Assembly (NCBI GenBank): GCA_964016885.1
Contig: OZ024740.1
Location: 303,924,001-303,988,000 of the forward strand
Direction: 5' to 3'
DNA: 64,000 nt
From: Eledone cirrhosa
Taxonomy: Eukaryota
Shown: one piece after another, positions 30,499 through 64,000 of the stretch
Layout of the letters: every line of letters begins with the position of its first letter
Position numbering within the stretch: position 1 is the stretch's first letter
The notes under the pieces: generated by a model
What the model saw: the letters and a program-made list of their open reading frames with translations, nothing else
What the model was told of the DNA's origin: nothing
The model's database searches: none
Translations under genes and position numbers: made by a program

Positions 30499-30514
30499 TA
30501 AAATAACAGATTAA

Positions 30515-30565: not shown

Positions 30566-30761
30566 AACAAAGTCAATCTGTAAACGCAGAACTGGATATT
30601 TCAAAAAACGTTGCAACCGGAGGAAGACAGGAAGACGATACTTTGCTCTACGGTTCTTATATATTTGATATATATTTTCCTTATCGAGCCCTCTTTGGAT
30701 TTTAGTCTTCAATTTTATTATTATTACTATATATATATATATATATAAATCTACATACATA

Positions 30762-30764
<3 letters not shown>

Positions 30765-30797
<33 letters not shown>

Positions 30798-33700: not shown

Positions 33701-34460
33701 TGTCCAACGTGACCATTTAGATCGCCAGCAATAATTATGTAGTCACTGTCGGTTATTTGGGAGTCTCATAGAATCTGTCTTTTATAGCGCCAGGCAGTCC
33801 GGATTGGGGTGCGTACGCAGATATTACTGTCACAGTAGTTCTATTTGGGACAAGTCTTATTTTAATTATTCTGTCGTTCACTCTATTTACGTCTATTATC
33901 TTATCTACCCATTTTTCTGTTAATATGATTCCTACCTCACCCAGCCCATTGTCATTTCCCACCCAGAAAAGCTTATAGTATCGTTTTTTACCCACAATGA
34001 ATCTAGCAGACCCACCCCTCCACCCGGTCTCTTGGATACAGCAAACATTAACCTCCTTACGCTCAAGCATTTCTACAACCTCGTTAGCGCAACCTTTTAA
34101 GGTGCCTACATTCATGGTACCAACTCTGAAGTTTTGGGTTGCGTTTTGTGGGTGGGAACGGTGGGGCGCGGGGAGGGGGGAGGGGGATAGTGTTGTTGGG
34201 GTTATGTTGGCCATCCGAGGCCGAAATAAAGAGGAGGAGTCCTTGCCTTTTCGTCCGGTAGCATCAGGTGAATTTGTCTTTATCTTTGGCTTTGTCACTG
34301 AGTGTCCAGATTTTTCAGTCTCTCCAGAATTCCTTAGTCCATCCATCATATCGAAGGGCAACCAGAAGAAGTGATAGCATAGGCCGCTGACTTTTGATTG
34401 GTCCAAATAATAATGGTGGCGAGTGGGGGCGGGTGGGAGGAGTAGTTAGCGAGAAGGTTT
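30765..34460 (-). mobile_element. Near full-length RTE-clade LINE, disrupted
   Basis: APE endonuclease (VGTMNVGTL, CCIQET, SAYAPQ) at 33753-34406; RT (YKGKGD..NYRGI, QFGF, LLYADD) at 31860-33154; (GAT)n tail; multiple frameshifts. Confidence 0.92.
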
Positions 34461-34674
34461 AAATAGAATCCTCTAATTTGGGGCATAATTGAACAAGCAT
34501 ATAACAGTAATAAGCGAATAATGGGATTTTAAGTACAAGAATATTATTTAGAACAACCAGACATAATTTTAGAATAGCATTGAGAAAGAGCAAAGATTGG
34601 ATTCTGGGCGATGATACGGATAGATGAATAGACCAGGGGAAGATGGAGAGAAGAGAAAAAAATGGCATTTTACA

Positions 34675-34710
<36 letters not shown>

Positions 34711-34720
34711 CATATAAATC

Positions 34721-34752
<32 letters not shown>

Positions 34753-34978
34753 TATATAAAAATCTACATACATACATATATACATACATACATATATACA
34801 TATTATACACACACATATATACATATATATATATATAAAACCTTACACACTTAAATATAAATGCATATATATATACAAATGTATAAATGCATAGCTATAT
34901 ACATACATTTACGTATGTATATAGCTATGCATTTATACATTTGTATATATATAAGCATTTATATTTAAGTGTGTAAGG

Positions 34979-35047
<69 letters not shown>

Positions 35048-35984
35048 TTGTGACAAGAAGCTTGTTTCCCAACCACATATTTCCGGGTTCAGTCCCACTG
35101 CCCAAGCTGACCAAAGCCCTGTGAGTGGATTTGATAGATCGAAACTAAAAGAAGCCGTCGTATCATCATCATCATCATCATCATCGTTTAACGCCCATCT
35201 TCCACACTTGCATGGGTTTGGACGGGAATTTTCCCACTTGAGGCAAGATTGGTTGACTTGCTCGTATAGGATTGGCTGGCGGGTTTTCTGTGGCTGGATG
35301 CCCTTCCTAACACCAACCACGTTTACAGTGTGGACTGGGAGGTTTTTACCGTGTTACCTACATGGCCACATTACAGCGTGGACTGTGTGTTTTTTTGTGT
35401 ATATATATATATGTATATATGTCTGTGTGTGTCTTTGCGTTTGTGTTTGCCCTCCCACCAATGCTTGTTGGTTTGTTGACGTCCCCATAACTTACCAAGG
35501 TGATGCTCTAGCATGGGCGTAGTCCAGAGACAGAAAAAAAGTAAAATATATATGTCTGTGTGTGTGTAGAAGACGGGTCTCAAACTCAAGGACACAAAAG
35601 GGCTATTACGTCCTGGAGGAGAGGCACAGTGGGCCAAACGTGGTGGTGGGTGAAAATTTTCACCAGTTATAATCATTTCTACTATAGGAACAAGGCATGA
35701 AATTTGGGGTTTAGGGTTCAGTCGATTGCATCGATCCTAGTACACAACTGGTGCTTAATTCATCGACCCCAAAAGGATGTAAGGCAAAGTTGAGATCGGC
35801 GGAATTTGAACTCAGAACGTAAAAACGGAAGAAGTACCGTTAAGCATTTCGCCAGATGTGCTAACGATTCCACCAGTTCGCCGTCTTATTTTCAACAGTT
35901 ATAATGCGATATGAAATATTGGTTCTACCACGGGCCACAGATAAGTAGTTCGCGGGCCTCATGTGTGAGCCCCCTGTTGGAGAT

Positions 35985-41770: not shown

Positions 41771-41789
41771 GATAAATAGATAGATAGAT

Positions 41790-43735
41790 TTCTTTATTTA
41801 CCATAAAGGCATAAAAAGAAGGGACAAATACAAAGGGGGAGTTTACATATAATTGAGTAAAAAGGGTGTAACATGAAAATAATCGAAAATAACCTCAAAA
41901 GGGAGGGGACGTGATGGGGATTGCACACACCCCCGAAAAAGTGTGCAATCCTTTGCCCGGGGAGCACATGGAGAAGGTGCTCCCCTCTCCTTTACTTCTT
42001 TACCTACAGGATGGTATACAGAGAAGGCCCATTTACACGAGCCATTCTCGCCACTATCACCCACCTTTCATAAAACTGCCTGTGGCCAAGCACCTCTCTC
42101 TCCATTCTTATCCTTCTTCCGAAGTGATATCGGAAGAAGTAGACCAGACTATGGCCAGAGAGGAAGTTGCCTGACCTCAGACCTTTCAATCGTGTCCACC
42201 AAACAACCTCTTTCAACATGGCTATTACGCACAGAAAAACCGCCTTTGCTTCCTTTGTGAAGAGGGGAGGCGGTTTGATTGTCATCACGGACTCGGCGGT
42301 CAATTTAATCGGCGCCACCCGCGACAGCAGTTGTTCGGCGTAGCCCCACAGATCAGCCACGCCCGGACATTGCACCAATGCGTGCGCTACGGTTTCTTCG
42401 TGACGCACGCATCTAGGGCAAATCTTTTTTGAGGGATCCCTGCCCGGGCGCCCGTGTCTGTAGAGCCTCTCTCGAACGGGTAGAGCCCCTCGGTAGCACT
42501 GCCAGGCCAGTGACTTCTGGAAGTTGTCCATTGGTCCTGGGCCGAAAGTCCTACCGAACAGGCTGGCCAGTTCGTCTTCCTCCATGTCCAGCGACTCTCC
42601 AAGGGTGTCATCGCCCCTGCTAGCCACCAGCCCTCTATAGAATGATGAGGTGGATTCTCCACCGATGGCCCGGCCCGCTTGCCAGAGAGCCCTGAGCGCC
42701 TGAGCACACTCAGTGTGCCAGTCTCCCAGTTTTCCGGATCTTTGCTTGACCCAGGACTGTAGCTCGGTGAGTGAGACGAGTCTCGGAAAGGCTCGTTTCA
42801 CGAACGGAGCCCACACCGGTTGACCAGTGAGGAATACCTGTAGGTGCCGTAGCCTTAATGCGTGCCTACGCATCATCAACCACGGCATCCCCAGCCCTCC
42901 TTTCGAAGGTTGTTGGCAGCAGATGGATCTTCTCACCATAGGAGGACGCTTCTTCCAAAGAAATTGGAAGAGCATGCGTTCCATGGTGGTGAGTGTTTCC
43001 TTAGGGCAAGGCACGACAGTCAGGCGGTAGTAAGTGACGGACGCTATGTAAATGTTCGCCACCTCCGCCCGGCCTTTTAGGGACAGCTTACACTTGGCAC
43101 ATTTCTGGGTTAGTGCAAACACCTTGTTCGTAACCTCGTTCCAGTTCTTTTCCACCTGGAGGTCCGGTCCAAACCAGACCCCAAGCAACTTTACCGGGCC
43201 CTCCGTCCAGTGTCCGACGACACCGTCAGGAGGCATCGGTTTGCCTCTCCACGTTCCGAGTTGCAGCCCGATGGATTTTTCCCGGTTCAGTTTCGCTCCT
43301 GACAACCTTTCGTACTCCTCCAGTAAGGTACCGATCGCCTCGATCTCCGAGTCGGTTGATACCATTACTGTTACGTCATCGGCGTAGGCCGACACCGCTT
43401 TGCTCAATCCTGGTTCCAGAGGGATACCCTGCAACAACTCCAACTTCCTCAGTAAAGGCTCGAGAGTCAATACGTACAGAAGGGAGGAGAGAGGGCACCC
43501 CTGTCGAATGGATCGTGTGATTTCGAACGGCTTCGAAAGGTAGCCGTTCACCTTGATCCTAGAACAGATGTGGTTGCTATGTAGGGCAGTGATCCAGCCT
43601 CTGAAAACAGGACCGAACCCAGCCGCCGCTAGCACCGCATCCAGGTAACCATGGTCGACCCTATCGAAGGCCTTAGACTGATCCAAGTTGATCAGGGCCC
43701 CACCGAAGCCGGGTTTGTTGCCAACCCTCTCTAAC
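41790..43735 (-). mobile_element. 5'-truncated Tx1-clade LINE of a related subfamily with intact reading frame
   Basis: ORF 42004-43782 with RT and C-terminal zinc motif; 18-bp TSD ATAAATAGATAGATAGAT at 41772-41789 and 43736-43753. Confidence 0.93.
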
Positions 43736-43819
43736 ATAAATAGATAGATAGATAGATAGACGTGTACCAAACACACACACATTTCTTACTCTCTCTGTCC
43801 CTCCCTCTTTCTCTCTTCA

Positions 43820-46869: not shown

Positions 46870-48620
46870 ATGATGATGATGATGCATATTAACATCATCT
46901 TTATGTCGGTTTTTCCATGCTCATATGAGTTAGATAAGTCTTCTCCATTACAGCATCTCTACACTAGTTTCTCTCGTTTGTTAGGTATAGTTTCTTGATA
47001 TCAGCTTTAACCACCTCTTCCTTCATCTTTCTTGATCTTCCTCTTCCATGATTTTCCTCCACTTGGAATTCCTGGCATTTCTTCACTCTACAATCATCTC
47101 CATACACATTACATGTCTGTACCAGCGCAGCCTTCTTTCCTGCACACTACATCTGATTCCTCTTATGCCCAGTTTTTCTCTCAGTTCATCTGTGCATTGT
47201 TGTTTACACATACTAACATTACACAACCAAAGGACCATATTTGATTCTTTTCCCTCAAGCTTTTTCATATCCTCTGCATTCAATGCTCACGTCTCACTAA
47301 CATGCAACATATACTTTACACACAGGCATCATCCAATTTATTCAGAGAGAAAATCCCTTTGTTGCCAATAAAGTTAGTAGATCCCTAAACATTTCCTATC
47401 CTGTTCCAATTCTAGCTACTCCGCTTTTGGAGAAACCCCTTCCACTGCTAATTAGATCATTCACTTTCATGGGACTTTCTCAGCATTAAAAAAAGTTTAT
47501 TTCACTGGTGCTCTCACTACTAACTAAGCCTGGACATCTGCCATATGTAATGCTTACTCTCTCTGTTAACCTGCCTGTGATTTCACTATGTCTCTTGTGT
47601 ATCCATATTTTATATTGACTACACTGCATAATATTCTTGCCTATTCCTTTTCTGAATATCAAACATGGCTATTTCCCTGATGGCAATAGGCTCTTGTATT
47701 CTTTCCTACTTACTTTGAGTTTACTCTGAGCCTTTTTGATTCTAGGATTTGTTTCTCCTTTTCAATGGAATTTCTTCTCTCTATCTTTCACAGATTCAGC
47801 TACAAGATCTAGGTCATCATTCTCCAGAAGTTCCGAAGGACAATTGGTCTTAAACTTCTCTGTAATGTCCAGGAGCACTATAATAAACTGATGGGATGAA
47901 AGACCAAGCCTTGATGCACACCTACTTGCACACTAAATTCTTCACTGAACACATTGCCAACTCTAACTTTACCTACATCTATGTACATGGCTTGTATTGC
48001 TCTCACAAGCTAGTCATCTATGTAAACAGCTTGTACTACTCTCACAAGCTAGTCATCTATGCCTAGTTTTCTTAAATTCTACCAAAGAAAACAACATTGC
48101 ATTCTATCAAAGTCTTTTTTCAAATCAATAAATAATTTCTACAGGGGCTTCCTTTTGGCTAGGAACTTTTCTTGCAGTTCACTCACTGAGAAAAGGTCAT
48201 TGGTTGTACTGCCATAGCACAAAAATACAAACATCTAATCTAATCTAATTCTCTTCTAAATTAGTTGTCCTAGAACTCTATCCATTACTTTCATAATGTA
48301 GTCCATCAGATTGATGCTTCTGTAATTGCTCCTTTCTAGAGCTATCTTTTATCTTCGTAGCAGTTAATTAGGATGCTGCTACTCTAATCACCAGGTATGA
48401 TACCATCACTTATTCCTGGTTGATTATGTAAAATACTATCTTAAGCCCTACTTCACCAGATTTTCAGCATCTCTGTGACTATCCCAGATGGCCCAGCTGC
48501 TTTGACCTTAATAGCTGGTCCCTTTGTTGTTTCTACTGGGGTCATTCCCCCCTCCTTCCTTGCATTCTCCATATTTATTAACCTCTTGATAATATTTCTA
48601 TACCCTTTTCCTTTGCCACC
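46870..48620 (-). mobile_element. Old decayed RTE LINE
   Basis: ELREKLGIRGIRCSVQERRLRWY at 47083-47283 plus RT-like remnants colinear with the 31-33 kb copy. Confidence 0.75.
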
Positions 48621-49027
48621 AACCATGTTATAGCATGGACTAGGTGCATTTTATTATACCATCAATGTTAAAGAGATTGTCAGTATTTAAGTGTACCCCT
48701 TTACACTGTATCGGTTTTTATTCAGAATTACTATTCTCCTAGATAATTTGCCTTCACTACAACTTAGATGTCTCCTCCATGCAAGTATTTATTTGGAATT
48801 ACTATTCTCGTAGATAAGTTGCCTTCACTCAGCTTAGAGAGCAATGTCTCCCCCATCCAATCAGATTTCATTTGTCAATTTATTCAGACACTGAGTCAGC
48901 TGTCATACTGTTACTGGATTCTTTCTTACGCAGGTACAATGTTTTCTTCACTTATTTAAAATTATTTTTGCTATAACAATATTGTCTTCATTCATTTAAA
49001 ATGTTTGGGTATTATTATCATATATAT

Positions 49028-49220
49028 TGAGCGGTGGATTGGCAGTATCGGTAGAAGGTCGGACGCCATGCTTTGCAGTACAGTTACGTCCCTTTACGGA
49101 CTGAGTTCAAATCCAGCCGAGGTTAACTTTGCCTTTCATCCTGACGGGGTCGATAAAATAAAGTACCAGTAATACACTGAGATAATTGCTAACCTTGTGC
49201 CAAAAAGTAGAAACAATTAT
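49028..49220 (+). mobile_element. Second tRNA-derived SINE family (other copies near 3011, 18480, 27085, 35670)
   Basis: GTTCAAATCC B box then AACTTTGCCTTTCATCC..GGGGTCGATAAAATAAAGTACCAG core recurring in the window. Confidence 0.75.
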
Positions 49221-49511
49221 ATATATTGATATCAGTCATTTGTAAAACTGGAAAGTTAAAGCTGGCGAAACTAAAAGGAAAAGCTAAAATTTCCAAAATT
49301 TAAAACGTTACGTTATATTCCAAGAAAAGAAATTATCATCAGCGACTTATTTAATTGCTGTTCTAATCAATTTGAAAACAAGTCGTGACTTTGTTCGTTC
49401 GTTGTGAAGTTTATCATCCAACTAACAACGTATGTCCATCCATATTTAAATTACAACTTATATTTTCTTCCATAATTTTTATGACGCAGGCGTACTCAAA
49501 CGTTGCAATTA

Positions 49512-49524
49512 TCTCCTCCTTTTC
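49512..49524 (+). promoter_or_regulatory. Candidate TCT/5'TOP-like pyrimidine tract upstream of the host gene
   Basis: TCTCCTCCTTTTC about 115 nt before the ATG in a locally CpG-richer stretch; TSS not determinable from sequence. Confidence 0.3.
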
Positions 49525-49637
49525 AACCGTGGCTCTCCGATACGTTTAACTTATCCTCTTAGAGTCCCACAAACTTCGCAATTTATTTGCTGTACCTCTT
49601 AAAAGAATACCAACTGTTGTGATACTGATAAATAATT

Positions 49638-51494
49638 ATGGCACGCAGAAAGATTAAACATGTTTATAAACCGTAAGTTGGTTGTAAATCGTATAATTTT
49701 AATACTTTATTTTACAACATGGTGGCCATGTCTGAAGTAGCACATGTCTTCATCATTTTCTCATTCACTCCCTTTTAGCTCACATTATCTTCACTTTTAC
49801 TTTTTTTATTTACTCAAAATCCTATTTCAATCTTCCTTAACGAAGAAAGATTTTCTTTATTATTGAATTTCATCATACTAATAACATTCGACAAAGTTAT
49901 GGTTATTTCGTAAGATTTTTAAAATAATCATAATTGTTTTTCATGGTAATTATAATTGCTATATTATAAAGAAATATTCTCTACTATAATTTTCTCAATG
50001 CTTTACCACTATAAAGTGTTTCTTTCATGTGTCGAATTAATGTTATTAAAAAATAGCATTGTAGTTTTAAGAAATCTGTTCTTAAGAAATTGTGTCACGT
50101 GTCAATATTGCGAGACAAAATTTAGAAAATTTCAAACTATTAATAGTAATTTCTTTTATTTCACTGGAAGTTTCATATATTTAACTCACAATCTGTGTCG
50201 ATGCTTTTAAACAAACAATCAGATCCATACTACTTGTCTGCGACAAGCATTTCGCGAATCCTTACTATAATAAATAGTTTATCCATAGAAAATGATAAAA
50301 CTAGACGAAGATAAAATGCAGATTACTAAGTCAGGCCGTAATGAATTTTGTACTTAACTGACTTGTGTGTTTTATCTATGTCCACCCTGAAGAAATTTAA
50401 CTCCCTGTATATATATTTATTTTTTATGAGAATAAGTTTGTTTTTTACATATCAATTTTTTTATTTCAATTTATTCGCTCCTTGATTTGATCTTTCGCTA
50501 ATCTACAATGAAAATGCTATCCGATTTTTTTTTTTTTTGCGACAGATCGTAAGATTGTCAACTGCGCAAACCTTTTGGAGCTATTTCTAATAAGTTCAAT
50601 TTAATCTGATGAAAGAGGGAATTAGTACTAACTGTTGTTGATCTAGGCATCTTTATGTATCTTTGGGGTTAAGGTGACGGATCATAAGGTAGTGCATTTG
50701 ATTTTTGGGCGGTGCGTTGTCTTGAAAAGGCAATGTATTTTACGTTACTTTTTACGATCGAACTGGGGTACCCTTTCATTAAAACAAATACCTAAGAAAA
50801 CTGCAACTTCTTTGGAGGCCAGCTGAACTTACATAGGTGTGAGCTGAACATTTTTATTTTTTTTCGTCTCTTAAATGGTAAATATTTTATCCTTTAAAAC
50901 TGAATATCTAAATTCTCAGAAATATTTCGGCAAAGTATTGCAATCTTATCCCAAGTTAGTTTGATTAGTTGAATACAGCCAGTACTTTCTCGTTAGCTTT
51001 TAAATTTCATCTTAATGTTTTACTAACTTTTGAAGCATAAGAATTTTTGGGAGATTTATACAACACCCCTCTCGATTTCGGTGGGAAATATTTTTCCTGT
51101 TTATTTTCGTGTGCTATCAACTAATCTGACTCGGAACGTGCCCCAAGTGACTTTTTTCCCGGGAAGCGGGGATGGGGGGAGCCCCCGAACTTGCTCTGCC
51201 CGGAGTTTTCTTTACCATTTTTTTTTTCGTATGTTATCAACAAATCTGACCTCCAAATCCACTCGGAAGTGAAGAAAATTAAGAGGGAAGACCCTCGGAG
51301 TTTCCCAGACATACACCCCTCTCGGGTTGGATAAGAAATATGTATTTCTTTCATAGTTTTTTTCGCGTATTATCGACGAATCTGACCTCCAAACACGCAC
51401 TCTAACCCATAGAAATAGCCTTAACGCTAACACCCACCCTAACTCTCTTCTGACATTTGATATGAGGTACAGTTAACTAAAAAACGAATATAAT

Positions 51495-51527
<33 letters not shown>

Positions 51528-54500
51528 CCGGTAAAAAAATTCAGGGATAGGAGAAAATTCTAGCCCCCCCCCCCTCTCCTTCCTTTGTGTCATGTTAGGA
51601 GGTCAGATTAATCGGTGGCACTCGAAAAAACCGAGCGAAAATAATTTCCCATTGTATGCTTTTTGTCTCCTCTTTAGAAAAATGACTGGAAATTAATTTT
51701 AAGTAATTTTTATTTTTATTTTTTTATATTCAATCTTTGTTAAATTAGATTTAACCCTCTAGTTACCCAATCCTGCCAAAACTAGCTCTGGTTCTAAAAC
51801 AAAACCACTCATTTTAAATTAAAATCTAACAATTTTATATAAGAACCATACATTAAGTTACTAGTGAAATAATAATTTTAGTAAATCCTTCAAAATTTTT
51901 CATTAATTAATTGAAATAGTGTATTTCATTAGAAATGCAGTCATGAAAGGGTTAGAGTTCTATCTACCTACTAATAAGGAAAATTCATAAAGAAATATAA
52001 CTCTTGTTAGAAAAGTTATACCATGTTAAGTGGTAAAAGTAATACATGGTTAATGTGAACTTGTTTTCACAGATGTTTATTTAAATCTTCCTTTATAATT
52101 TATATATTAAACAACGTTCCCCTAATTAATTTGATATATTTATTTAACACTAAGTTTTTTGTTTTTCTTTTCAAAATCTTATATAATATAAAAACTTATT
52201 GTATTTCTAGGCCAGCTGGTGGGGCCACAGTCACACCTAAAGAAAACAAATCAAAAGTACCATTAGATTGTGTAAGTATTCTAAATGAACTGACAAAGTG
52301 TTTTGTGTAAGAGTATATAAACTCGGGGTGTCTCACTCTCTTCCTCTGTAATGTTTATCACATTTTCATTAACTACCTATTTGCTATTAATTTTTATCCA
52401 TACTTGACACACTGTAAATGTGGTTGGCGTTAGGAAGGGCATCCAGCCATAGAAACCAAGCCCAAATCAGTTCTGTATGAGCAGGACATGGTCATCTGAT
52501 CTGGCTTGTCTCACAATGGGTGAGCTCGTTTAGCATCGAAAAATGGACATTAAATGTTGAGGATGGTGATGAATATGATACCATCTTCCTCTCCTAAACC
52601 TCTGCTTACAGGTGTTATACACAACCTAAACATTAATTTCAGACTTGCACTGATTCTTGTGAACAGAATCATTGAAAGCTTCTTTCAACGATCACATTGT
52701 GTTACTTAGCAACACAAAAACTTCAGTTGCTACAAATACCAGGCCTCAATTTGATTACACCTCATCATGGCACCTTGACAATCCACTGTAGTCCTCCAAA
52801 GGTACAACTTTTCTTTTCGGCTTGCTGAATCCCAATTCATTGTATAATCATTTATAATACTTCTGAAGATGTACAGTATTTAATAATGCTTTGTTATACT
52901 CAATATTTTCCCTCTTTATCTAAATTTAAATAACAAGCATTAATTGAATAAGATTTATTGAAACAATAAACAATTATAAAGCTATTAAATTGTTTAAAGA
53001 AATTTACTCTTGTCATCTCAGTTATATATGTTGTGTTATTATGTGTCCCTAAATTCTTCTATTCTTTAAATAACATCTCTTCTAAATTTGTTTCTGTCAT
53101 GTTAGTGACATAACAAAAACCTCCCAGTCCATCCTGTAAGGTGGTCATGCTGGTGACGCAACAAAAACCACCTAACATGGTTGGTGTTTTAGAAGGGCAT
53201 CTAGCCGTAGAACCAAGCCAAAATACTGATCTATATGAGCAGTACTTGGTTTCTTGACCTGACTTGTCTCATAATGCAACAACCTGTCTAACCATCCTTC
53301 ATAATTGTCCTGTAATTCTAGATTTTCTCTTTGCCCATGTTTTCCCTGCAGACATTGATTGACAGATGTTGAAACTGAATGTTAACCACATCAGTTTGCA
53401 AAGATCAGAAATCCTCCTTCAAGCTTAAAAATAGACATAGCAACATTTCAGATTTTCATCATTGTATAACTTTTTTTTGTAAAATATAGTTGACATATGT
53501 TTATGTGTAACAAAATGTCTTCTATGACTGATTATTGGCTTAATTAGTTAATGTTCATGTCTAATAACTCTGACTGCCATTGTGTAATCTTTACCAAACG
53601 TTACTATGATGGTCTATCCCGTTGAGATGCTACAGCCTTTTGACACCATATAAAATCTATATGAACGTCTTTATTTTAAATGTAATTTTTTTAAATGTTA
53701 TCTGCTTATTACAGAAAACAGAAGCATATGTTGACAGTTTGTATAATGCAGCATTTCAGAAGCACACTTCACGGCCTAATAATAATTTGGAAGGTTATTT
53801 TATAGTACTTCGCTGGTATAAATTTAGCACAACATGGATAACATATTATGTTGGCGAAGGAGAAATTCGCTCAGAACTTAATCGCTTATTTGGCTCTCCG
53901 AAGACACCTAAAGCAATCAATCAATACTTGACCTCAGTTTCGAGAAAGGATCGTAGCAGATTGTTAGCTCTCAAGTGGTTTCCGTATCCTGACGACTTCA
54001 AGGTAATTAGTGTAATGTCATTATTGGGAAAGTTTGTTTGCTTTAATGTCCTCTTCAGAAACATTGTTCATGAAAAATATTTTAAATCATAAACATAAAA
54101 AAAAATTTTTGCACAAATATTTGTATGTGAACAGCTGATATGTGTAGAAAATATAGCTGTAATGATGTGTAGAAAACGTAGTTATATTGGTATGTGTAGA
54201 AACTATAGCTGTGTTGATATCTATTGAAAACAGTTGTGTGATGTATTTGGCCTCATGGATGTTGCAGGATTGACAGCTAGTGATTTGAATAATGTATTTC
54301 TATATTTGTAATGGCTATTCTGTAGATTGTAGATTAATTAATCATGCAGATGTTGTGGATGGAAAAACTTTTGACACAATAAGAAGTTAATTCAGTGTGA
54401 AAGTATTTTCAGCAGAAGTCATTTAAGTCTGTACAAAACTGCTCTACTGATATAGTGTTGAGCTTGTAACTTCACGCAAAAAGATATCATTAAGTGAGTG

Positions 54501-55147
54501 GATTGTGGGCACAAAAACGTGTTGACTAGTTCCTACTGGAATTCTTTGAACAGTGACTTACCTTAAATTTTCAAATTAAAACTTATTTTCTTTTAACTTA
54601 ATAGAACCCACTGAAGTGGTTAGAGTGTTGAGGTTGTGAGTTCAATTCCTAGACCAGGCTATGTATTTTGTTCTTGAGCAAGATTTTATTTCACGTTTTA
54701 GTTCAATCAGCTGAGCTGTAGAAATTTGTTGCAACATCACTGATATCAGCCTTTGCTTTTCCCTTGGTCAACATCAGTGGTGTGAAGAGAGGAGACTGGT
54801 ATGCATGGACGACTGCTGGTCTACTGCAAACAACCTTGCTCGAACTTGTGCCTTGGAGGGGAACTTTCTAGATGCAAATCCAATGGTCATTCGTGACTGA
54901 TGGGGTTATAAAAAAAAAAAAAACATTTAATGTCTTTTTGAATTGAAATCAGGAATGGTAAAGATTTTAATAATTAGGATTATGTTTATGATTTTATCAA
55001 TATACTAAATTGAATGATGGAACTACATTTTTCATGATTAATAGATAAAGTAATATTTTGTAATTTCAGGCTTCAATGAAAGATATTAAAGCTGTCATTG
55101 CTGCAAAATACAATGAAAATTATGAACCACCATTTAATAATGTTTAA
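49638..55147 (+). CDS. Uncharacterised 153-aa protein with GIY-YIG-like motifs; 4 coding exons; probable snoRNA host gene
   Basis: Exons 49638-49672 (MARRKIKHVYK), 52211-52271, 53715-54002, 55070-55147 (TAA) all have strong GT-AG sites and compatible phases (2,0,0). Motifs EGYFIV...YYVGEGEIRSELNRL...LKW...YEPPFN. Another donor (G|GTAAGT) follows at 55173/55174. Confidence 0.72.
53715..54002 (+). CDS. Largest exon (96 codons) of the GIY-YIG-like gene
   Basis: Open frame inside ORF 53622-54092, bounded by TTACAG and AAG|GTAATT; non-repetitive, coding-like composition. Confidence 0.8.
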
Positions 55148-56122
55148 CAAAAGACACTACATAGGCTTGCTTGGTAAGTTAGGTGATATGTAACACTTTG
55201 TTTCTAATGTATTTCAAGTAAATTCCTAAATGAATCTATACTAGCTTTGTAAAACAACTGTAATTTTATATATCTATTATGAAAATTCAGTGTCAAATAC
55301 ACTCCAACAGGTAAAATGAGTGAAATATTTTAAATATTGTCAACAAGGAAATACTGAACATTATAGTGGCTATAATAAGGTTCCTCTAAGAGGTCTTTGG
55401 AGTAACGTTACTGGATAGTGGATAGCTTGGAGATCACAGCTCCGATACTATAAACATCGTCAGAATGTCTAAGGAAAGAATCGCTGGACAGATTTTACAG
55501 GCAAAAACCAACCCGAAGGAGACACAGGGGTAGACCCCGAGTAAGATGGTTGGATAACATCCATGAGCTTGGCTGGTCTTGCCTGGGGATCCAGCTAGAT
55601 CATTGGAGCTGCTTGAGGACCTGCCCCCACGGCACTCCCAGGAATAAGTGGGCAAAGAAGAAGCCTAAAGGCTTATTTTATGGCCAAACTAATTTTATCT
55701 AGTTTATCTTATCTTTTTTTGTTTATATTTTTTGCAAGTTGCTTTTGAGGAAGAGAATAATTGGCTCTGGTTTCTGCAGAGACTCAAACCTTCTTTCTGG
55801 AAATCCTGGCCATAGCTAGTTGATTTGTTTAAACTAATGGAAATTAAAACATTGAGTTAAAATCTGTCATGTACTGAGCTTAAGATGTTTCTACTTTTTG
55901 CATATGAAAATCCTGAAATTCAAAGTCACTATCTAAATAAATCTAAAGTTTACATATTTTTTAAGAAGAAATAAAATAAATCCAACTAGTTCAATAATAA
56001 ACAGGATTAGAATATATTAATAGTTAAGTAAATTAACCATCTTTTAGTAAGAAAATAGAAATCTTAATTTTCTATAATTACTTTGTAATACATTGTCTGT
56101 GTATCTTGTTTGAATATAATCT

Positions 56123-56233
56123 AACTTGCAGTGATGCTGTAATTTGCGTCTGATGGTGCAATGTGCAGACAGTTGCCTGCTGTCATTAAATGCCATTAGT
56201 TCTCACTGAAGAAAAGTTATAACTGAGCAAGTT
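56123..56233 (+). ncRNA. SNORD16: Box C/D snoRNA U16-like, copy 1
   Basis: Terminal stem AACTTGC/GCAAGTT, C box GTGATG, guide GTAATTTGCG plus D' CTGA, GACAGTTGCCTGCTGTC hairpin, D box CTGA; matches the recalled vertebrate U16 (TGCAATGATGTCGTAATTTGCGTC...GACAGTTGCCTGCTGTCA...ACTGAGCA). Confidence 0.92.
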
Positions 56234-56871
56234 TATTTACATGATATATTTAATCATCTTCATTGCCCATTTATTCCTGTGATGGTTGTGTGGACAGTCT
56301 TCAGACACTTATCAGAGGTTCCTATCAGAAGCATCCATCTCCAAATGATCTTGCTGGGTCTTCTGGTTAAACACTCCTTAAACATGTCTTTGTAGTACGG
56401 GAGATGTGATCTCGCTGCGGAAAAGTGGCGACTCCCTGACCTCCAAGCTGTGTACCCTATTGAATAACATTACTCCGAAGATCCTTCGGAGGTGCCTCCT
56501 TTTGTTCACTTGTGTTTGTGACTATTTTTTTAGTCATTACTTAAGATTCATTACCATAGGTAAGTGAGTTTACTGTTTACATCTACCTCTCTTCTGATGA
56601 CCAAGAGTTAAAGCTGATGCATTACTGCACCAGCTCCAACAGTTCCTATATTTAATTCATCCAGCCCCTGGGATACTTCATTCAAAGTCAGCACTAGATT
56701 ATAAGTTGTTGATACATTTTATTTAAGCTATCAGTGTTTCCAGGTGTAATTCTGACAGAAATGTTCATTTATAAAGAAGAATGTAATCTACAAGAATCAC
56801 AGCTGAGAAAGTTATGCTACTGCTATTGTTACAGTAATACATTGTCTCTGTGTCTTGTTTGAATATAATCT

Positions 56872-56982
56872 AACTTGCAGTGATGCTGTAATTTGCGTCT
56901 GATGGTGCAGTGTGCAGACAGTTACCTGCTGTCATTAAATGCCATTGGTTCTCACTGAAGAAAATTTGTAACTGAGCAAGTT
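56872..56982 (+). ncRNA. SNORD16: U16-like snoRNA copy 2
   Basis: Same 111-nt unit, boxes and guide intact. Confidence 0.92.
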
Positions 56983-57885
56983 TATTAACATGATATATTT
57001 AGCTAAATCTCTTAATGTAGTCTTCCAGTTAAGTCTTTCATTATCAATTTGTCGAAGAACCCACACATTTTGTTCCAATTTAACCACCTCTCTGTATTAA
57101 CTGATTTAATTTTGAAATTCATTGTTTTAATGTCTGTTCGACAACATGTAGTCACTATTGATATATATATATATATATATATACATAAATTCAGTTGTAT
57201 GATGCCTGTGTGAGATGCGTGATGCTGTGTGGCAGCAACTGCAGAGGATATGCGAAGGCTGGGGAGAAATAAAGCTAGCATGCTCCGATGGATGTGAAAT
57301 GTCGCTGTGCGTGAACGACTAGGCATGGACGAGTTGAGAGTGAAACTGTATAAGAGGGATAAACTGTAGTGTGCGGGAGAGAAGGCTGCGTTGGTATGGC
57401 CATGTGATGCACATGGAAGATGACCGCTGGGTGAAGAAGTGCCAAGAAGTCCTGGTGGAAGGAAGACCACGAAAAACATAGTCTGAGGTGGTGAGAGCTG
57501 ACCTCTGGTCATTGAAGCTCACAGGAGATGACGAAGGACCATGATGAATGGAGAGATGCTGTACTGAAAAGGACCTGCCCCACCCTTACAAGCAGGGAAA
57601 AGCGGACATAAAATGATGATGATATATATACTGGTGTTTCATGCATTTATATCCAATAACTGATATTTTTGTCAGAATTTATTTCAGAAGTCTTAAGATT
57701 TATGACTGAATATTCCTAGCTAAATTGTTGACTATTCCACAGTGAATGTTTTGTAAACTTAGTTAAAATATATTACAATCCACATATCCCATATGTATAT
57801 AGTTATCATGATAGCTTACTCACTGAAATAATACTCTACTGTTATTTTGTATAATTACATTGTGTGTCTTGTTTGAATATAATCT

Positions 57886-57996
57886 AACTTGCAGTGATGC
57901 TGTAATTTGCGTCTGATGGTGCAATGTGCAGACAGTTGCCTGCTGTCATTAAATGCCATTAGTTCTCACTGAAGAAAAGTTATTACTGAGCAAGTT
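57886..57996 (+). ncRNA. SNORD16: U16-like snoRNA copy 3
   Basis: Same 111-nt unit, boxes and guide intact. Confidence 0.92.
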
Positions 57997-58751
57997 TATT
58001 TACATGATATTTTTATCATTTTTATTGCCCATTTATTCCTGTGATGGTTGTGGGGCCAGTCCTCAGACACCCTTTTCTAGAGCTTCCTATCAGAAGCAAT
58101 CATTCTCAAATGATCTGGCTGGGCCTCCAAGTGAGAGCAACCAAGATTATGGATGTTATTCAACCATCTTGCTTGTGTTGTGATCCACATCTGAGTCTTC
58201 GGTCAGTTGGTTTTGCTTGTAAAATCTGTGCAGTAATTGTCTTTTTAAACTTTCTAACATGTTAGTAGTACTGCAGCTATGATTTCTTGATGTAGAGAAG
58301 CATTGACTCTATCTGGATTTCTCAGCTATGCAATCTATTAACATTACTTGAAAGACTCTTCAGGGAGCCCCATTTAGCTCGCTCATATAGGTAAGCAAGT
58401 TTGGCTTTTACACCTTCCTCCCTTCTGATGATGGAGTGTTGAAGTTGGTGCATTACAGCACCAGCTCCAGCAATTCTTGAATTTAATTCCGCCATTTGCC
58501 TTCCATCAGTCATGAAAATGACTCTTAGATACTTGAACTTCTCCACCTTTGTGAGTGTAACTCCATTCTCATTCAAAATCAGCTGTAAGTCCTTAGTCAA
58601 TGTTGATATATTGTCTCAATTTAAGCTATCATTATTTCCAGGTGTAATTTTGACAAATATTGATTTAAAGAATGGTGTAATCTATAGAATCCCAATATAC
58701 TGCTATTGTTATAGTAATACATTGTCTCTGTGTCATGTTTGAAGATAATCT

Positions 58752-58862
58752 AACTTGCAGTGATGCTGTAATTTGCGTCTGATGGTGCAGTGTGCAGACA
58801 GTTGCCTGCTGTCATTAAATGCCATTGGTTCTAACTGAAGAAAAGTTCTAACTGAGCAAGTT
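58752..58862 (+). ncRNA. SNORD16: U16-like snoRNA copy 4
   Basis: Same 111-nt unit, boxes and guide intact. Confidence 0.92.
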
Positions 58863-59420
58863 TATTTACATGATATATCTAACTTAGATTTTAAACATAA
58901 ACCTCTTAAATGTTATAGTCTTTCATTATCAAACCGGTGAAGATTTGTGCCAATTTAACGATCGCTCTGTATTATCTAAATTAACCATTTCAAATGAAAT
59001 AATTAATAATTTTAGCAAATCCCTTGAAATGCTTCATTTATTGAAATAGTGTATTTCGTTAGAAATGTGGTCATGAAAGGGTTCAGTGTAACTTCTTGTC
59101 ACTTATCCTGTTGGGAACACTCATGATTGGTTTTCTTCTACTTATCAAATGGCTAATGATATTTTTACTTACTAGCAATATTTTAGGGAGAAAAATATTC
59201 AAAATGTGTTTCCATCCTTCTCTTTGTTCTTATATCTTCCTCTTCAATATCCAACTATTTTCTAGCAACTTATGGTATTCATATGGCTTTTTGGCCCTTG
59301 TCTTACTATACTGTAATGGGTGTACTTTTTTTTTACCATCACACTGAAAGCATGTCTTTAGTGTAGTCATGATAACTGATGAATTGGTAATACCCTTCTA
59401 TTGTATTTTAACATATAGTT

Positions 59421-59531
59421 AACTTGCAGTGATGCTGTAATTTGCGTCTGATGGTGCAGTGTGCAGACAGTTGCCTGCTGTCAATATATGCCACTGGCTC
59501 TCACTGAAGAAAATTTATAACTGAGCAAGTT
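59421..59531 (+). ncRNA. SNORD16: U16-like snoRNA copy 5
   Basis: Same unit, variant class (TCAATATATGCCACTGGCTC). Confidence 0.92.
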
Positions 59532-60204
59532 TATTTAACCTTCAAATTTAGTAATAGATCTTCAGTTAATATTGATGTAATATTTTATTTAAGCTATGAA
59601 TATTTCCAGGTGAAATACTGACATGCATTTTAAATTATAAAGAAAGGTATGATATATAGGAATAAGAAAGATGGCTGCTAATGAAAAAGCTGAGAAAATC
59701 ATGCTGCTATTGTTTCTGAGATTTGTCATAACTATTATAATAGGACTTTATTGTGTCAACATCTCTTCACTGTCTTCTACTCGCTATTGATATATATATA
59801 TATTAGAAAGTGTCGAGGCCTGATGGCTGAGCTCTTGCCATTTTGATAGCTAGTTCCACTCTATCCCAAGTATCGGGTACTCTGTTGAATAATGAATGGT
59901 CTTATTAGTTTAATCCTGATATATATATATACCCTCACACAATTCATTAATCTGGTGCTTCATGTAGCTATATCCAATAAGTGATATTTTGCTATAATTT
60001 ACTTCAGAAGTCTTATGACTGAATATTCCTAGATAAATGGTTTTGACTTTTGGACAGTGAATGTTTGGTAAACTTAGTTAAAATATATTACAATCCACAT
60101 ATCCCATATGTATATAGTTATCATGATAGCTTACTCACTGAAATGATATTCTACTGTTATTTTGTATAATTACATTGTCTGTATGTCATGTTTGAATATA
60201 ATCT

Positions 60205-60315
60205 AACTTGCAGTGATGCTGTAATTTGCGTCTGATGGTGCAATGTGCAGACAGTTGCCTGCTGTCATTAAATGCCATTAGTTCTCACTGAAGAAAAGTT
60301 ATTACTGAGCAAGTT
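60205..60315 (+). ncRNA. SNORD16: U16-like snoRNA copy 6
   Basis: Duplicate of copy 3. Confidence 0.92.
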
Positions 60316-61071
60316 TATTTACATGATATTTTTATCATTTTTATTGCCCATTTATTCCTGTGATGGTTGTGGGGCCAGTCCTCAGACACCCTTTTCTAGA
60401 GCTTCCTATCAGAAGCAATCATTCTCAAATGATCTGGCTGGGCCTCCAAGTGAGAGCAACCAAGATTATGGATGTTATTCAACCATCTTGCTTGTGTTGT
60501 GATCCACATCTGAGTCTTCGGTCAGTTGGTTTTGCTTGTAAAATCTGTGCAGTAATTGTCTTTTTAAACTTTCTAACATGTTAGTAGTACTGCAGCTATG
60601 ATTTCTTGATGTAGAGAAGCATTGACTCTATCTGGATTTCTCAGCTATGCAATCTATTAACATTACTTGAAAGACTCTTCAGGGAGCCCCCATTTAGCTC
60701 GCTCATATAGGATAGCAAGTTTGGCTTTTACACCTTCCTCCCTTCTGATGATGGAGTGTTGAAGTTGGTGCATTACAGCACCAGCTCCAGCAATTCTTGA
60801 ATTTAATTCCGCCATTTGCCTTCCATCAGTTATGAAAATGACTCTTAGATACTTGAACTTCTCCACCTTTGTGAGTGTAACTCCATTCTCATTCAAAATC
60901 AGCTGTAAGTCCTTAGTCAATGTTGATATATTGTCTCAATTTAAGCTATCATTATTTCCAGGTGTAATTTTGACAAATATTGATTTAAAGAATGGTGTAA
61001 TCTATAGAATCCCAATATACTGCTATTGTTATAGTAATACATTGTCTCTGTGTCATGTTTGAAGATAATCT

Positions 61072-61182
61072 AACTTGCAGTGATGCTGTAATTTGCGTCT
61101 GATGGTGCAGTGTGCAGACAGTTGCCTACTGTCATTAAATGCCATTGGGTCTAACTGAAGAAAAGTTCTAACTGAGCAAGTT
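61072..61182 (+). ncRNA. SNORD16: U16-like snoRNA copy 7
   Basis: Duplicate of copy 4 (GCCTACTG variant). Confidence 0.9.
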
Positions 61183-61740
61183 TATTTACATGATATATCT
61201 AACTTAGATTTTAAACATAAACCTCTTAAATGTTATAGTCTTTCATTATCAAACCGGTGAAGATTTGTGCCAATTTAACGATCGCTCTGTATTATCTAAA
61301 TTAACCATTTCAAATGAAATAATTAATAATTTTAGCAAATCCCTTGAAATGCTTCATTTATTGAAATAGTGTATTTCGTTAGAAATGTGGTCATGAAAGG
61401 GTTCAGTGTAACTTCTTGTCACTTATCCTGTTGGGAACACTCATGATTGGTTTTCTTCTACTTATCAAATGGCTAATGATATTTTTACTTACTAGCAATA
61501 TTTTAGGGAGAAAAATATTCAAAATGTGTTTCCATCCTTCTCTTTGTTCTTATATCTTCCTCTTCAATATCCAACTATTTTCTAGCAACTTATGGTATTC
61601 ACATGGCTTTTTGGCCCTTGTCTTACTATACTGTAATGGGTGTACTTTTTTTTTACCATCACACTGAAAGCATGTCTTTAGTGTAGTCATGATAACTGAT
61701 GAATTGGTAATACCCTTCTATTGTATTTTAACATATAGTT

Positions 61741-61851
61741 AACTTGCAGTGATGCTGTAATTTGCGTCTGATGGTGCAGTGTTCAGACAGTTGCCTGCTG
61801 TCAATATATGCCACTGGCTCTCACTGAAGAAAATTTATAACTGAGCAAGTT
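61741..61851 (+). ncRNA. SNORD16: U16-like snoRNA copy 8
   Basis: Duplicate of copy 5. Confidence 0.92.
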
Positions 61852-62525
61852 TATTTAACCTTCAAATTTAGTAATAGATCTTCAGTTAATATTGATGTAA
61901 TATTTTATTTAAGCTATGAATATTTCCAGGTGAAATACTGACATGCATTTTAAATTATAAAGAAAGGTATGATATATAGGAATAAGAAAGATGGCTGCTA
62001 ATGAAAAAAGCTGAGAAAATCGTGCTGCTATTGTTTCTGAGATTTGTCATAACTATTATAATAGGACTTTATTGTGTCAACATCTCTTCACTGTCTTCTA
62101 CTCGCTATTGATATATATATATATTAGAAAGTGTCGAGGCCTGATGGCTGAGCTCTTGCCATTTTGATAGCTAGTTCCACTCTATCCCAAGTATCGGGTA
62201 CTCTGTTGAATAATGAATGGTCTTATTAGTTTAATCCTGATATATATATATACCCTCACACAATTTATTAATCTGGTGCTTCATGTAACTATATCCAATA
62301 AGTGATATTTTGCTATAATTTACTTCAGAAGTCTTATGACTGAATATTCCTAGATAAATGGTTTTGACTTTTGGACAGTGAATGTTTGGTAAACTTAGTT
62401 AAAATATATTACAATCCACATATCCCATATGTATATAGTTATCATGATAGCTTACTCACTGAAATGATATTCTACTGTTATTTTGTATAATTACATTGTC
62501 TGTGTGTCGTGTTTGAATATAATCT

Positions 62526-62636
62526 AACTTGCAGTGATGCTGTAATTTGCGTCTGATGGTGCAATGTGCAGACAGTTGCCTGCTGTCATTAAATGCCATT
62601 AGTTCTCACTGAAGAAAAGTTATTACTGAGCAAGTT
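62526..62636 (+). ncRNA. SNORD16: U16-like snoRNA copy 9
   Basis: Same class as copies 1, 3 and 6. Confidence 0.92.
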
Positions 62637-63120
62637 TATTTACATGATATTTTAATCAACTTTATTGCCCATTTATTCCTGTGATGGTTGTGGGGCCAGC
62701 CCTCAGACACCCTTTTCTAGAGCTTCCTATCAGAAGCATCCTTCTCCAAATGATCTGGCTGGATTTCCTGGTTAAACACACCTTAAACATCTTTGTAGTA
62801 CGGGAGATGTGATCTCTTAATGTGGAAATGTGGCGACATCTACCTCTCTTCTGATGACCAAGACTTGAAGATGATGCATTACTGCAGCAGTTCCTGCATT
62901 TATTTCAGCCAGGTCTCGAGATAATTCTATCTCATTCAAAGTCAGCACTAGATCATCAGTTGTTGATACATTTTATTTAAGCTATCAGTGTTACCAGGTG
63001 TAATTCTGACAAATGTTCATTTATAAAGAATGTAATCTACAAGAATCACAGCTGAGAAAGTTATGCTACTGCTATTGTTACAGTAATACATTGTCTGTGT
63101 GTCTTGTTTGAAGATAATCT

Positions 63121-63231
63121 AACTTGCAATGATGCTGTAATTTGCGTCTGATGGTGCAGTATGCAGACAGTTGCCTGCTGTCATTAAATGCCATTGGTTC
63201 TCACTGAAGAAAATTTGTAACTGAGCAAATT
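63121..63231 (+). ncRNA. SNORD16: U16-like snoRNA copy 10
   Basis: C box ATGATG, guide and D'/D boxes intact; same class as copy 2. Confidence 0.9.
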
Positions 63232-64000
63232 TATTAACATGATATATTTAGCTAAACCTCTTAATGTAGTTTTCTGATTAAGTCTTTCATTCTCGATTTT
63301 TTTAAAATAAAATAAAACCACAGCCTGCTTTTATAATAACCTTGTATTTCAGATTCCAAAAGCCCCCTAATTTCTTAGTTATTCTTAATTGAAACCCTGG
63401 CAATTTAACTTAAATACTTTAGAAAAACCTAAATCTTTTTTTTTTTTTTCATTGCAGAAAGCTGGCCAATTTTCTGAATATAAGTCCATATTATACCATT
63501 TTTAACATCAAAGAGGTTTAAATTCAGAAAAACCTATTTTTTGCTGAGAATTACTAAATTTTCACAACTTCAAATTTGGTAAATAAATGATGAATCTAGA
63601 TGAATTTTGATTTTTTTTTTCTTCAATAAATGATTCAATTGTTCTTTTTCTTTAAAGATCTTGTAATTTTGAATTATTTCATAACTGACATTTCAGTTTT
63701 ACCATACCATGATGGGAGTGGGTGTGGTCCAATTGCTTCTAAGAATTATTGTTGAAATGTATGCACATAAATAGAAAATAATTGGAAGTAGTTTTTAAAA
63801 ATGTTCATAAAGTAAATTTTTTGTAAGTTAAATATACCATCATTAGTTGTTTTATGACTGCCTTTCCATGCTGGCATGGGTTGGACAAGGCCTTTTGAGG
63901 CAGTCTTTCCTTACAAAAAGGATAAAACAGTTTCTGATGGATCTCTACTGATTATAACACTGACTATTTTGTATACGTGTAATGTCTGAATGAGTATCCT

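Follow-up and report, generated by a model that had tools for sequence, protein, structure and literature searches.

What does a short, interrupted reading frame beside a small nucleolar RNA (snoRNA) array encode, and does its product still cut nucleic acid? The question is raised by a 64,000-nt stretch of the genome of the cephalopod Eledone cirrhosa (contig OZ024740.1 of assembly GCA_964016885.1, positions 303,924,001 to 303,988,000 of the forward strand; hereafter the window, numbered from its first nucleotide), in which an original prediction, made from the letters alone, joined segments between 49638 and 55173 into an unannotated gene for a divergent protein of the GIY-YIG nuclease type. 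We favor a reading in which a five-exon gene encodes a basic 153-residue protein with a predicted stand-alone GIY-YIG fold, likely a non-cutting binding module, and carries ten SNORD16 snoRNAs in an intron of its 3' untranslated region (UTR); taken as a whole, we give this reading about an even chance. Its exon structure and splicing, its conservation across molluscs and the position of the snoRNA array inside a spliced-out intron were observed directly, and the protein represents a lineage-restricted, stand-alone family with a predicted GIY-YIG fold, likely a pseudo-nuclease.

A small spliced gene

Reading the window and splicing it by coordinates yields coding exons at 49638-49672, 52211-52271, 53715-54002 and 55070-55147, which total 462 nt, or 153 codons and a TAA stop, with every intron between them bounded by GT..AG. 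The proposed in-phase joining of four exons into 153 residues thus held on exon arithmetic, on splice-site dinucleotides, on end-to-end orthologues and on an assembled contig that carries the junctions. That contig, 619 nt long with a depth of 1712, comes from run X4, the small member of a set of four sequencing runs (X1-X4, with X1 large) from one study, none of which is recorded as RNA. It contains all three junctions (49672>52211, 52271>53715 and 54002>55070) at the coordinates foreseen; the last was listed as 54000>55068 with the mark 'cut +2', which is equivalent to 54002>55070 and is bounded by GT..AG. Of the three DNA-like runs, X1 had no contigs with the three coding junctions, and X2 and X3 showed none of these junctions and no splice joints within 55000-64000.

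Genome-wide, exon 3 has two matches, the second of which is 32% identical and has three TAA stops, and the exon 3 search found no near-identical intron-less copy in the assembly. Because the contig is spliced and the assembly holds no such copy, we infer that the X4 contig derives from RNA. At a second locus on another contig (L002 1504-1797; G000:C15:17259144-17259356 plus flank), the counterparts of exons 3 and 4 directly adjoin, lacking the 1,067-nt intron; the sequence is 67% identical to the spliced mRNA over 322 nt and contains three TAA stops in frame. Since the intron is missing, this locus is an old processed pseudogene and therefore an independent record of the spliced form. The small spliced gene is confirmed as real, and chance is far from able to account for it.

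Exon 1 (49536..49672, plus strand, as are all exons) comprises at least 102 nt of 5' UTR and the first 35 coding nucleotides (MARRKIKHVYK-P), and ends at a GTAAGT donor. Its 5' end was computed from the X4 contig, in which record position 199 corresponds to 53715, and, as the end of a contig, does not by itself define where transcription starts. The start codon at 49638-49640 sits in the context aattATGG, and the 102-nt 5' UTR of the contig has no ATG. Exon 2 (52211..52271, 61 nt, phase checked) supplies the remainder of a basic, likely disordered N-terminal tail that is conserved in the orthologues P0001 and P0002 described below. Exon 3 (53715..54002, 288 nt, residues 33-128) lies in a long stop-to-stop frame at 53610-54092 (160 residues) and, as the original prediction had said, is the only exon apparent in a list of open reading frames. 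With secondary structure taken over from a model of the octopus orthologue, it carries an N-terminal helix, a hairpin (G59-Y-F ... Y77-V-G), a helix (R84, R89, F91), two linker helices and a linker strand (K119-W120). Exon 4 (55070..55173) encodes the last 25 codons, containing the final helix with D133, then N143 and E147-P-P-F-N151, followed by the TAA stop at 55145-55147 and 26 nt of 3' UTR. The end at 55173 is a true exon end: a GTAAGT donor begins at 55174, and the contig continues into 63458.

Two observations concern the sequence just upstream. A very high-copy repeat with many internal joints occupies 48602-49230, directly before the 5' end of the gene, with a summed contig depth of 70,000-105,000 in X4 and 425,000-620,000 in X1. 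Between this repeat and the first base of the spliced contig, a pyrimidine run (CTCCTCCTTTTC, 49512-49523) may mark a transcript start of the 5' terminal oligopyrimidine type.

A protein family shared by molluscs

A word-index search with exon 3 returned two homologous proteins among four candidates. P0001 is "uncharacterized protein LOC106880171" of Octopus bimaculoides (154 residues, 71% identical to the exon 3 translation), in a cluster that also includes an O. vulgaris / O. sinensis record, and P0002 is a 153-residue protein of Argonauta hians (67% identical to the exon 3 translation). Both align end to end with the spliced window protein over its four exons, at 107 of 151 identical residues for P0001 (70.9%) and 96 of 150 for P0002 (64.0%). 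Beyond this assembly, at least four cephalopod records annotate the orthologues, as uncharacterized proteins. This is the only public annotation that they carry, and none of the family libraries covers them.

Queried with the two octopod proteins and run with no length filter, a library-wide HMMER search gave 19 matches at E<=1e-3, 10 of them at E<=1e-10. The bivalve Solemya velum and the gastropod Babylonia areolata are the named members from outside the cephalopods; their proteins are 32.7% and 29.7% identical to the window protein, within the 28-33% seen for non-cephalopod full-length members, and a further member, P0021, is 52.3% identical. Eighteen of the 19 matches are only 93-202 residues long, so the protein stands alone, in keeping with its description as a free-standing domain. 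The nineteenth, P0020, a repetitive 466-residue protein matched over seven short stretches at E 1.3e-5, looks unrelated and was left out of all alignments. A word-index homologue search with a 12-sequence alignment recovered only four already-known proteins. Among named records the family has so far been seen only in molluscs.

Across 12 sequences eight residues are invariant (octopus numbering: R55, P56, G61, G83, F93, Y105, K121 and W122), and N144 is invariant in 13 of 13. The invariant polar and aromatic positions correspond to R52, Y103, K119, W120 and N143 of the window protein, which has a mass of 17.7 kDa, an isoelectric point (pI) of 9.75 and an N-terminal tail with eight Lys and Arg residues to two Asp and Glu. 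This Lys/Arg-rich tail is conserved in outline across the family.

The C-terminal ends also vary. Non-cephalopod members have a P-E/D-N/D-F-S-I/L-L motif after the terminal F-N, at the C-terminal end, and the octopod and window proteins end right after F-N-x-V. Judged from these sequences, a short linear motif seems to have disappeared in the cephalopod lineage.

A predicted GIY-YIG fold

Modeled with AlphaFold2 from a 20-sequence alignment, the octopus orthologue P0001 reached a predicted local distance difference test score (pLDDT) of 85.5 and a predicted template modeling score (pTM) of 0.82. Besides an N-terminal helix, the model contains strands at 60-69 and 74-84, helices at 85-93, 101-108 and 111-117, a strand at 118-124 and a helix at 132-142. 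Extracts of the papers on the superfamily (all papers are cited here from extracts of their text) describe the GIY-YIG core as a beta-hairpin, an arginine helix, a linker strand that completes a three-stranded sheet and a glutamate helix (PMC3045582, PMC3664794), arranged in the order hairpin, arginine helix, helical connection of variable number, linker strand and glutamate helix (PMC3045582). The order of elements in the P0001 model, namely hairpin, helix, two linker helices, strand and helix, is that of GIY-YIG.

Exhaustive comparison of the P0001 model with 48,161 Protein Data Bank (PDB) representatives by VIA-align placed GIY-YIG proteins in all of the top seven positions, with Z scores from 7.1 to 3.9 and the next structure at 2.4. 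T4 EndoII led (Z 7.1, root-mean-square deviation (rmsd) 3.0, 101 residues aligned), followed by R.Eco29kI (Z 6.7, rmsd 4.3, 111 residues aligned), the N-terminal GIY-YIG domain of GRXS16 (Z 6.2), the UvrC N-terminal domain (Z 6.0), I-TevI (Z 5.4), PD-T4-3 (Z 4.6), which we take to be a GIY-YIG protein, and Hpy188I (Z 3.9). The GRXS16 domain is described as a GIY-YIG endonuclease domain (PMC5890173). Among the best 998 chains returned by Foldseek for the same model, the 14 best entries were all GIY-YIG, followed by a drop to Z 2.5, and 20 chains had Z>=5. Because the gap in Z is clean and every top row belongs to one superfamily, a chance arrangement is unlikely.

The ESM Atlas gave a concordant picture. 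P0001 matched its top cluster with a feature score of 0.95 and 179 shared features, its ten best named matches all belonged to one family or clan, and its structural TM-score to a PF01541 cluster was 0.58/0.62. A 27%-identical member, P0010, reached the same top cluster more weakly (0.93, 153 shared features). The original prediction had named AlphaFold with Foldseek as the check on its GIY-YIG assignment, and on the octopus orthologue that check came out in its favor, with the top seven of 48,161 PDB representatives and the top 14 Foldseek entries all of this fold. The family is thus predicted, from the model, to have the GIY-YIG fold.

An incomplete catalytic set

The motifs that had drawn attention to the gene are all present in the window protein (G59-Y-F-I-V, Y77-V-G-E-G-E-I-R-S-E-L, L-K119-W and Y-E-P-P-F-N151), including the Y-V-G at 77-79 and the terminal E147-P-P-F-N151 that were said to be kept. 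Registration with known enzymes was taken from the alignments of the P0001 model. Chain residues 2-92 of I-TevI align to model residues 59-154; with ungapped ends, this would match its G-I-Y to octopus G61-V-Y63 and its Asn90 to octopus N152. The range ends of UvrC (89/90 onto 153/154) and Eco29kI (156 onto 154) likewise place the canonical Asn on model N152 if ungapped.

In this register the third GIY position, which holds the general-base tyrosine, is Tyr in 7 of 20 sequences, Phe in 10 and Leu in 3; the window protein, with G59-Y60-F61, has F61 at this position as placed by the I-TevI alignment range. Of the YIG residues (Y77-V-G79 in the window protein), the tyrosine persists in 17 of 20 sequences and the glycine in 10 of 20, with an invariant family glycine two residues past the latter, G83 of P0001. 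The YIG glycine is described as sterically required for its absence of a side chain (PMC3045582). In the helix after the hairpin, one column has Arg in 9 of 20 sequences and another has Arg in 4 and Lys in 7, and the only invariant residue is an aromatic position (Phe in 18, Tyr in 2). The window protein has R84 and R89 in this helix; across the family no arginine there is invariant. The last helix has in its first turn a mostly acidic column (D133 in the window protein), a candidate by motif order for the position of the catalytic Glu, with Asp in 8 of 13 sequences, Glu in 3, Ala in 1 and Asn in 1. The terminal F-N (N151 in the window protein) is kept in 11 of 12, and the C-terminal Asn, motif E, is itself described as not universal in the superfamily (PMC1564403).

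The proposal that the second Arg and the metal-binding Glu appear replaced needs correcting, as R84 and R89 are present and D133, the candidate for the Glu position, is acidic, like the residue in 11 of 13 relatives. What the window protein lacks, as far as its sequence and those of its relatives go, is the GIY tyrosine (F61) and any Arg that is invariant across the family. In GIY-YIG enzymes the arginine is described as positioning the attacking water and the glutamate as anchoring the metal (PMC3045582); R.Eco29kI Y49F is an 'inactive variant' by its PDB title (3nic), E142Q is likewise called inactive in a PDB title, and I-BmoI R27A is reported as inactive (PMC3664794). Because the GIY tyrosine varies, no Arg is invariant, the YIG glycine varies and these mutants are described as inactive, we infer that the canonical cutting chemistry is not conserved in the family and is probably absent from the window protein. 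The invariant R55, Y105 and K121 (octopus numbering) could in principle form a substitute site.

Ten SNORD16 copies in a 3'-UTR intron

Matching of the X4 contig ends at 55173 and leaves a 29-nt loose end, whose sequence uniquely matches 63458-63486 (no chance matches expected), directly preceded by a TTGCAG acceptor. From this loose end at 63458 it follows that there is a fifth, non-coding exon; the joint 55173>63458 itself fell below the listing threshold and is deduced from the loose end. Intron 4 (55174..63457, plus strand, 8,284 nt, with GT at 55174 and AG at 63456-63457) thus lies within the 3' UTR, and exon 5 (63458..63650, plus strand) is a terminal 3'-UTR exon with an approximate 3' end and AATAAA at 63582 and 63625. 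X4 depth is consistent with this structure, at 603 in the exon 4 bin compared with 0-18 in most intron 4 bins, and at 164 in the bin 63428-63728 that holds exon 5 compared with 17.5 in the preceding intron bin.

Intron 4 contains transposon fragments and ten matches to SNORD16 (Rfam RF00138), all on the plus strand between 56127 and 63227 and scoring 52-61 bits against a gathering score of 45. In order they lie at 56127..56229 (52.3 bits), 56876..56978 (54.6), 57890..57992 (54.7), 58756..58858 (56.8), 59425..59527 (55.3), 60209..60311 (54.7), 61076..61178 (56.2), 61745..61847 (54.8), 62530..62632 (54.7) and 63125..63227 (61.1). The array is built on a higher-order unit of about 2,320 nt that holds three copies and is repeated at 99% identity. 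No joints indicating extra exons between the copies were seen in X4 contigs, which can miss rare isoforms. Ten sense-strand SNORD16 copies thus lie in an intron that the X4 contig skips, the arrangement of a box C/D snoRNA host (a sense-strand snoRNA in a removed intron of a spliced transcript), and the suggestion that the gene is a snoRNA host transcript is upheld.

With its stop codon only 26 nt ahead of the last exon junction, the mRNA would escape nonsense-mediated decay by the usual 50-55-nt rule. A single transcript would then yield both the protein and the SNORD16 snoRNAs. The vertebrate ribosomal protein L4 gene carries U16 singly, one copy to an intron. The Eledone array resembles vertebrate SNORD16 (U16) in being intron-encoded, on the sense strand, within a spliced protein-coding host, and differs in that one 8.3-kb 3'-UTR intron holds all ten copies and the host is a small, unrelated gene. 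Ten tandem copies in one intron raise the question of how several snoRNAs leave a single intron.

A retroelement tail fragment lies in the same intron between SNORD16 copies 2 and 3 (57200-57620; frame 57012-57518, minus strand). It is similar to the elements found upstream in the window (see Surroundings in the window) and is high-copy in the DNA-like runs, at a depth of about 12,000.

What does the protein do?

We suggest that the protein would be a small nucleic-acid- or partner-binding module, perhaps nuclear or nucleolar. A binding role is proposed because the tail is rich in Lys and Arg, the pI is 9.75, and the invariant R52, Y103, K119, W120 and N143 point to a conserved site. Several observations weigh against the reading of the gene as an expressed, non-cutting GIY-YIG protein. 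On the side of expression, X4 is not on record as RNA and a single assembled contig of that run supplies the support. On the structural side, the protein modeled is P0001, 71% identical to the window protein, and not the window protein itself; a first AlphaFold2 model from two sequences had a pLDDT of 41.7 and was not used for fold searches; and the structural Z scores, up to 7.4, fall in the range that the aligner grades 'middling'. D133, N151, R84 and R89 are mapped to catalytic positions by motif order and alignment-range ends only. G-V-Y, Y-V-G, two helix arginines, the acidic residue and the terminal Asn are all present in octopus and Argonauta, and since these octopod proteins keep most of the motif set, catalysis is possible in some lineages.

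Sequence-level searches belong among these opposing points. The GIY-YIG families of Pfam (PF01541, PF19239 and relatives) matched none of 12 family members and not the one window exon searched, even at E<=10; NCBIfam and PHROGs held nothing relevant to GIY-YIG for the family; and PDB profile searches gave no matches with alignment A1 and two irrelevant ones with alignment A3. With hhalign, the family profile had a probability of <0.1% against 26 transposon GIY-YIG domains of this genome (26 of 30 fetched copies, four having been dropped as truncated or mis-framed) and of 0.2% against eight phage T4 GIY-YIG proteins; these hhalign negatives are weak evidence because the home-made alignments are small (effective number of sequences, Neff, about 3). 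The methods applied thus gave no support for GIY-YIG at the level of sequence. Other matches from the same searches were set aside. The two PDB matches, to RNase R (E 0.67), were rejected as chance; PAZ_2 (E 0.04), at 14 bits, fell short of its cut-off of 23, and the fold searches returned no PAZ structure; and VTT_dom (E 0.094), VisN and two PHROGs of unknown function were sub-threshold matches at chance level.

The rival readings turn on the active site, on the fold's present use and on the origin of the gene. The protein could be an active DNA or RNA nuclease with a re-wired site, in which R52, Y103 and K119 replace the GIY tyrosine and the helix arginine. The invariance of these polar residues (R55, Y105 and K121 in octopus numbering), with N144 in 13 of 13, suggests a conserved functional site; the YIG tyrosine (17 of 20 sequences), the acidic residue that opens the last helix (11 of 13), the terminal F-N (11 of 12), and G-V-Y with Y-V-G in octopus and Argonauta point the same way. 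Substitutions within the motifs are also tolerated in active enzymes, Hpy188I having LVY/KIG for GIY/YIG, with lysine in place of the YIG tyrosine (PMC3045582). However, Phe or Leu stands in for the general-base tyrosine in 13 of 20 sequences, that of the window protein included, the glycine described as sterically required (PMC3045582) is replaced in 10 of 20, and the helix after the hairpin has no invariant Arg column, so we regard an active nuclease as unlikely, though one that deserves to be kept in mind. A fuller version, in which the re-wired site (the Arg before strand 1, the Lys-Trp linker strand and the linker-helix Tyr) still cuts or processes nucleic acid, possibly nucleolar RNA, and is co-produced in cephalopods with the ten-copy SNORD16 array, seems to us improbable. 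If true, it would tie a guide RNA for ribosome biogenesis to a small, dedicated nuclease. The opposite departure keeps the fold and gives it a role as a protein-protein scaffold or another function away from nucleic acid, as proposed for the Unc-1 domain of ANKLE2, which according to the extract of PMC13179284 is GIY-YIG-like without the motifs and has no endonuclease activity, with the title of a supplementary figure stating no binding of double-stranded DNA. A minimal GIY-YIG domain is described as binding DNA weakly on its own (PMC3664794), and the lack of a sequence-level signal in Pfam and hhalign would suit such a role, but a pI of 9.75 and a conserved basic tail fit association with nucleic acid or with the nucleus or nucleolus better than a neutral scaffold, and the protein has no known partner. 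We judge this reading, too, to have a minor chance of being right.

Two further readings question the protein or its origin. Many snoRNA host genes are non-coding, and together with expression support from one assembled contig this allows the frame to be incidental in an essentially non-coding host. We consider this very improbable, for the full-length frame persists at 64-71% identity in Octopus and Argonauta, is recognizable in a gastropod and a bivalve with eight invariant residues, and gives a confident fold from its alignment (pLDDT 85.5), whereas the retro-copy L002 has gained three stops; the stop codon 26 nt before the last junction is also compatible with a stable mRNA. Alternatively, the gene could derive from recent domestication of the endonuclease domain of a Penelope-like retroelement. 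Such elements, which are found in cephalopods, encode GIY-YIG endonucleases (PMC8557442), and this genome has more than 10,000 first-look candidates for PF01541, with 150 of 150 scoring above the Pfam cut-off. Yet the comparison with the 26 element copies gave the hhalign probability of <0.1% noted above, the gene lacks both the C-x-x-C insert and the clear R..R...H, E and N set of those copies, and the best structural matches are EndoII and Eco29kI. As the gene has introns and is common to cephalopods, a gastropod and a bivalve, any capture from Penelope would be ancient, and we find a recent one scarcely credible. The non-cutting binding module with a GIY-YIG fold remains the reading that we favor.

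Relation to known GIY-YIG proteins

The closest structures to the P0001 model are T4 endonuclease II (2wsh; Z 7.1-7.4, rmsd 3.0, 100-101 residues) and R.Eco29kI (3mx4, 3nic, 3mx1; Z 6.7-7.1, 110-112 residues). Both are GIY-YIG nucleases with an N-terminal extension, and they cover about residues 18-154 of the model, including the extra N-terminal helix, with the hairpin, helix, linker strand and last helix in the same order. Identity in these structural alignments is 11-13%, with no similarity at the profile level. Unlike these enzymes, the window protein has Phe for the general-base tyrosine and belongs to a family without an invariant Arg; the mollusc protein is also eukaryotic, encoded by an intron-containing gene, monomer-sized at 17.7 kDa and without a known DNA target. 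The minimal domains of UvrC (1ycz, 1yd2) and I-TevI (1ln0) align over 79-80 residues at Z 6.0 and 5.4. In their own proteins they are joined to DNA-binding or repair modules, and they retain Tyr, Tyr, Arg, His/Tyr, Glu and Asn, whereas the mollusc protein is free-standing and has part of that set.

In language-model features, the nearest likeness is to small bacterial stand-alone GIY-YIG proteins of similar size in the ESM Atlas (PF01541 or PF19239; 112-142 residues, feature scores 0.94-0.95, TM-score up to 0.58/0.62 over residues 34-154), which are mostly recognizable by Pfam and show no HMMER similarity to the mollusc family. The Penelope-like endonuclease is described as having a Cys-containing, zinc-finger-like insert and as linked to a reverse transcriptase reading frame (PMC8557442). 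In contrast, the mollusc gene has W-Y-K-F-S-T-T-W between the GIY and YIG positions with no Cys pair, its own introns and no adjoining reverse-transcriptase frame. By analogy, the closest functional precedent for a non-catalytic GIY-YIG fold would be ANKLE2 Unc-1, an animal domain assigned to GIY-YIG by structure search, with the motifs missing and, in the extract of its report, no nuclease activity found (PMC13179284). ANKLE2 is large, multidomain and present in all animals, whereas the mollusc family is small and single-domain.

Surroundings in the window

Elsewhere in the window, non-LTR (long terminal repeat) retrotransposon-type frames of 279-593 residues (endonuclease and reverse-transcriptase-like) lie on the minus strand at 29600-43800, in at least two nested or adjacent copies, with microsatellite-rich flanks near 30.4, 35.0 and 44.4 kb. 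A weak tRNA-like Rfam match at 17552-17609 on the plus strand (30.5 bits, with a gathering score of 29; part of the model, positions 8-63) may be a short interspersed nuclear element or another tRNA-derived repeat. In the genome at large, the PF01541 copies that were fetched (loci L003-L032) show C-x-x-C inserted between the two motifs, GIY and YIG, and look like Penelope-type endonuclease domains; such copies are very abundant.

Significance

A full-text search of open-access papers and bioRxiv found no paper on a mollusc GIY-YIG family. We regard the family as a new, divergent one within the known GIY-YIG fold superfamily, with an unusual snoRNA-host arrangement, and not as a new kind of system. 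The predicted fold supplies testable hypotheses for a conserved mollusc family that sequence searches of Pfam, NCBIfam and the PDB cannot place. Animal GIY-YIG proteins outside transposons are few: in humans only SLX1A and ANKLE1 are annotated as GIY-YIG, and the GIY-YIG-like domain of ANKLE2 is described as non-enzymatic (PMC13179284, in extract). A small, stand-alone and probably non-catalytic form in molluscs would add a second animal example of a reused nuclease fold.

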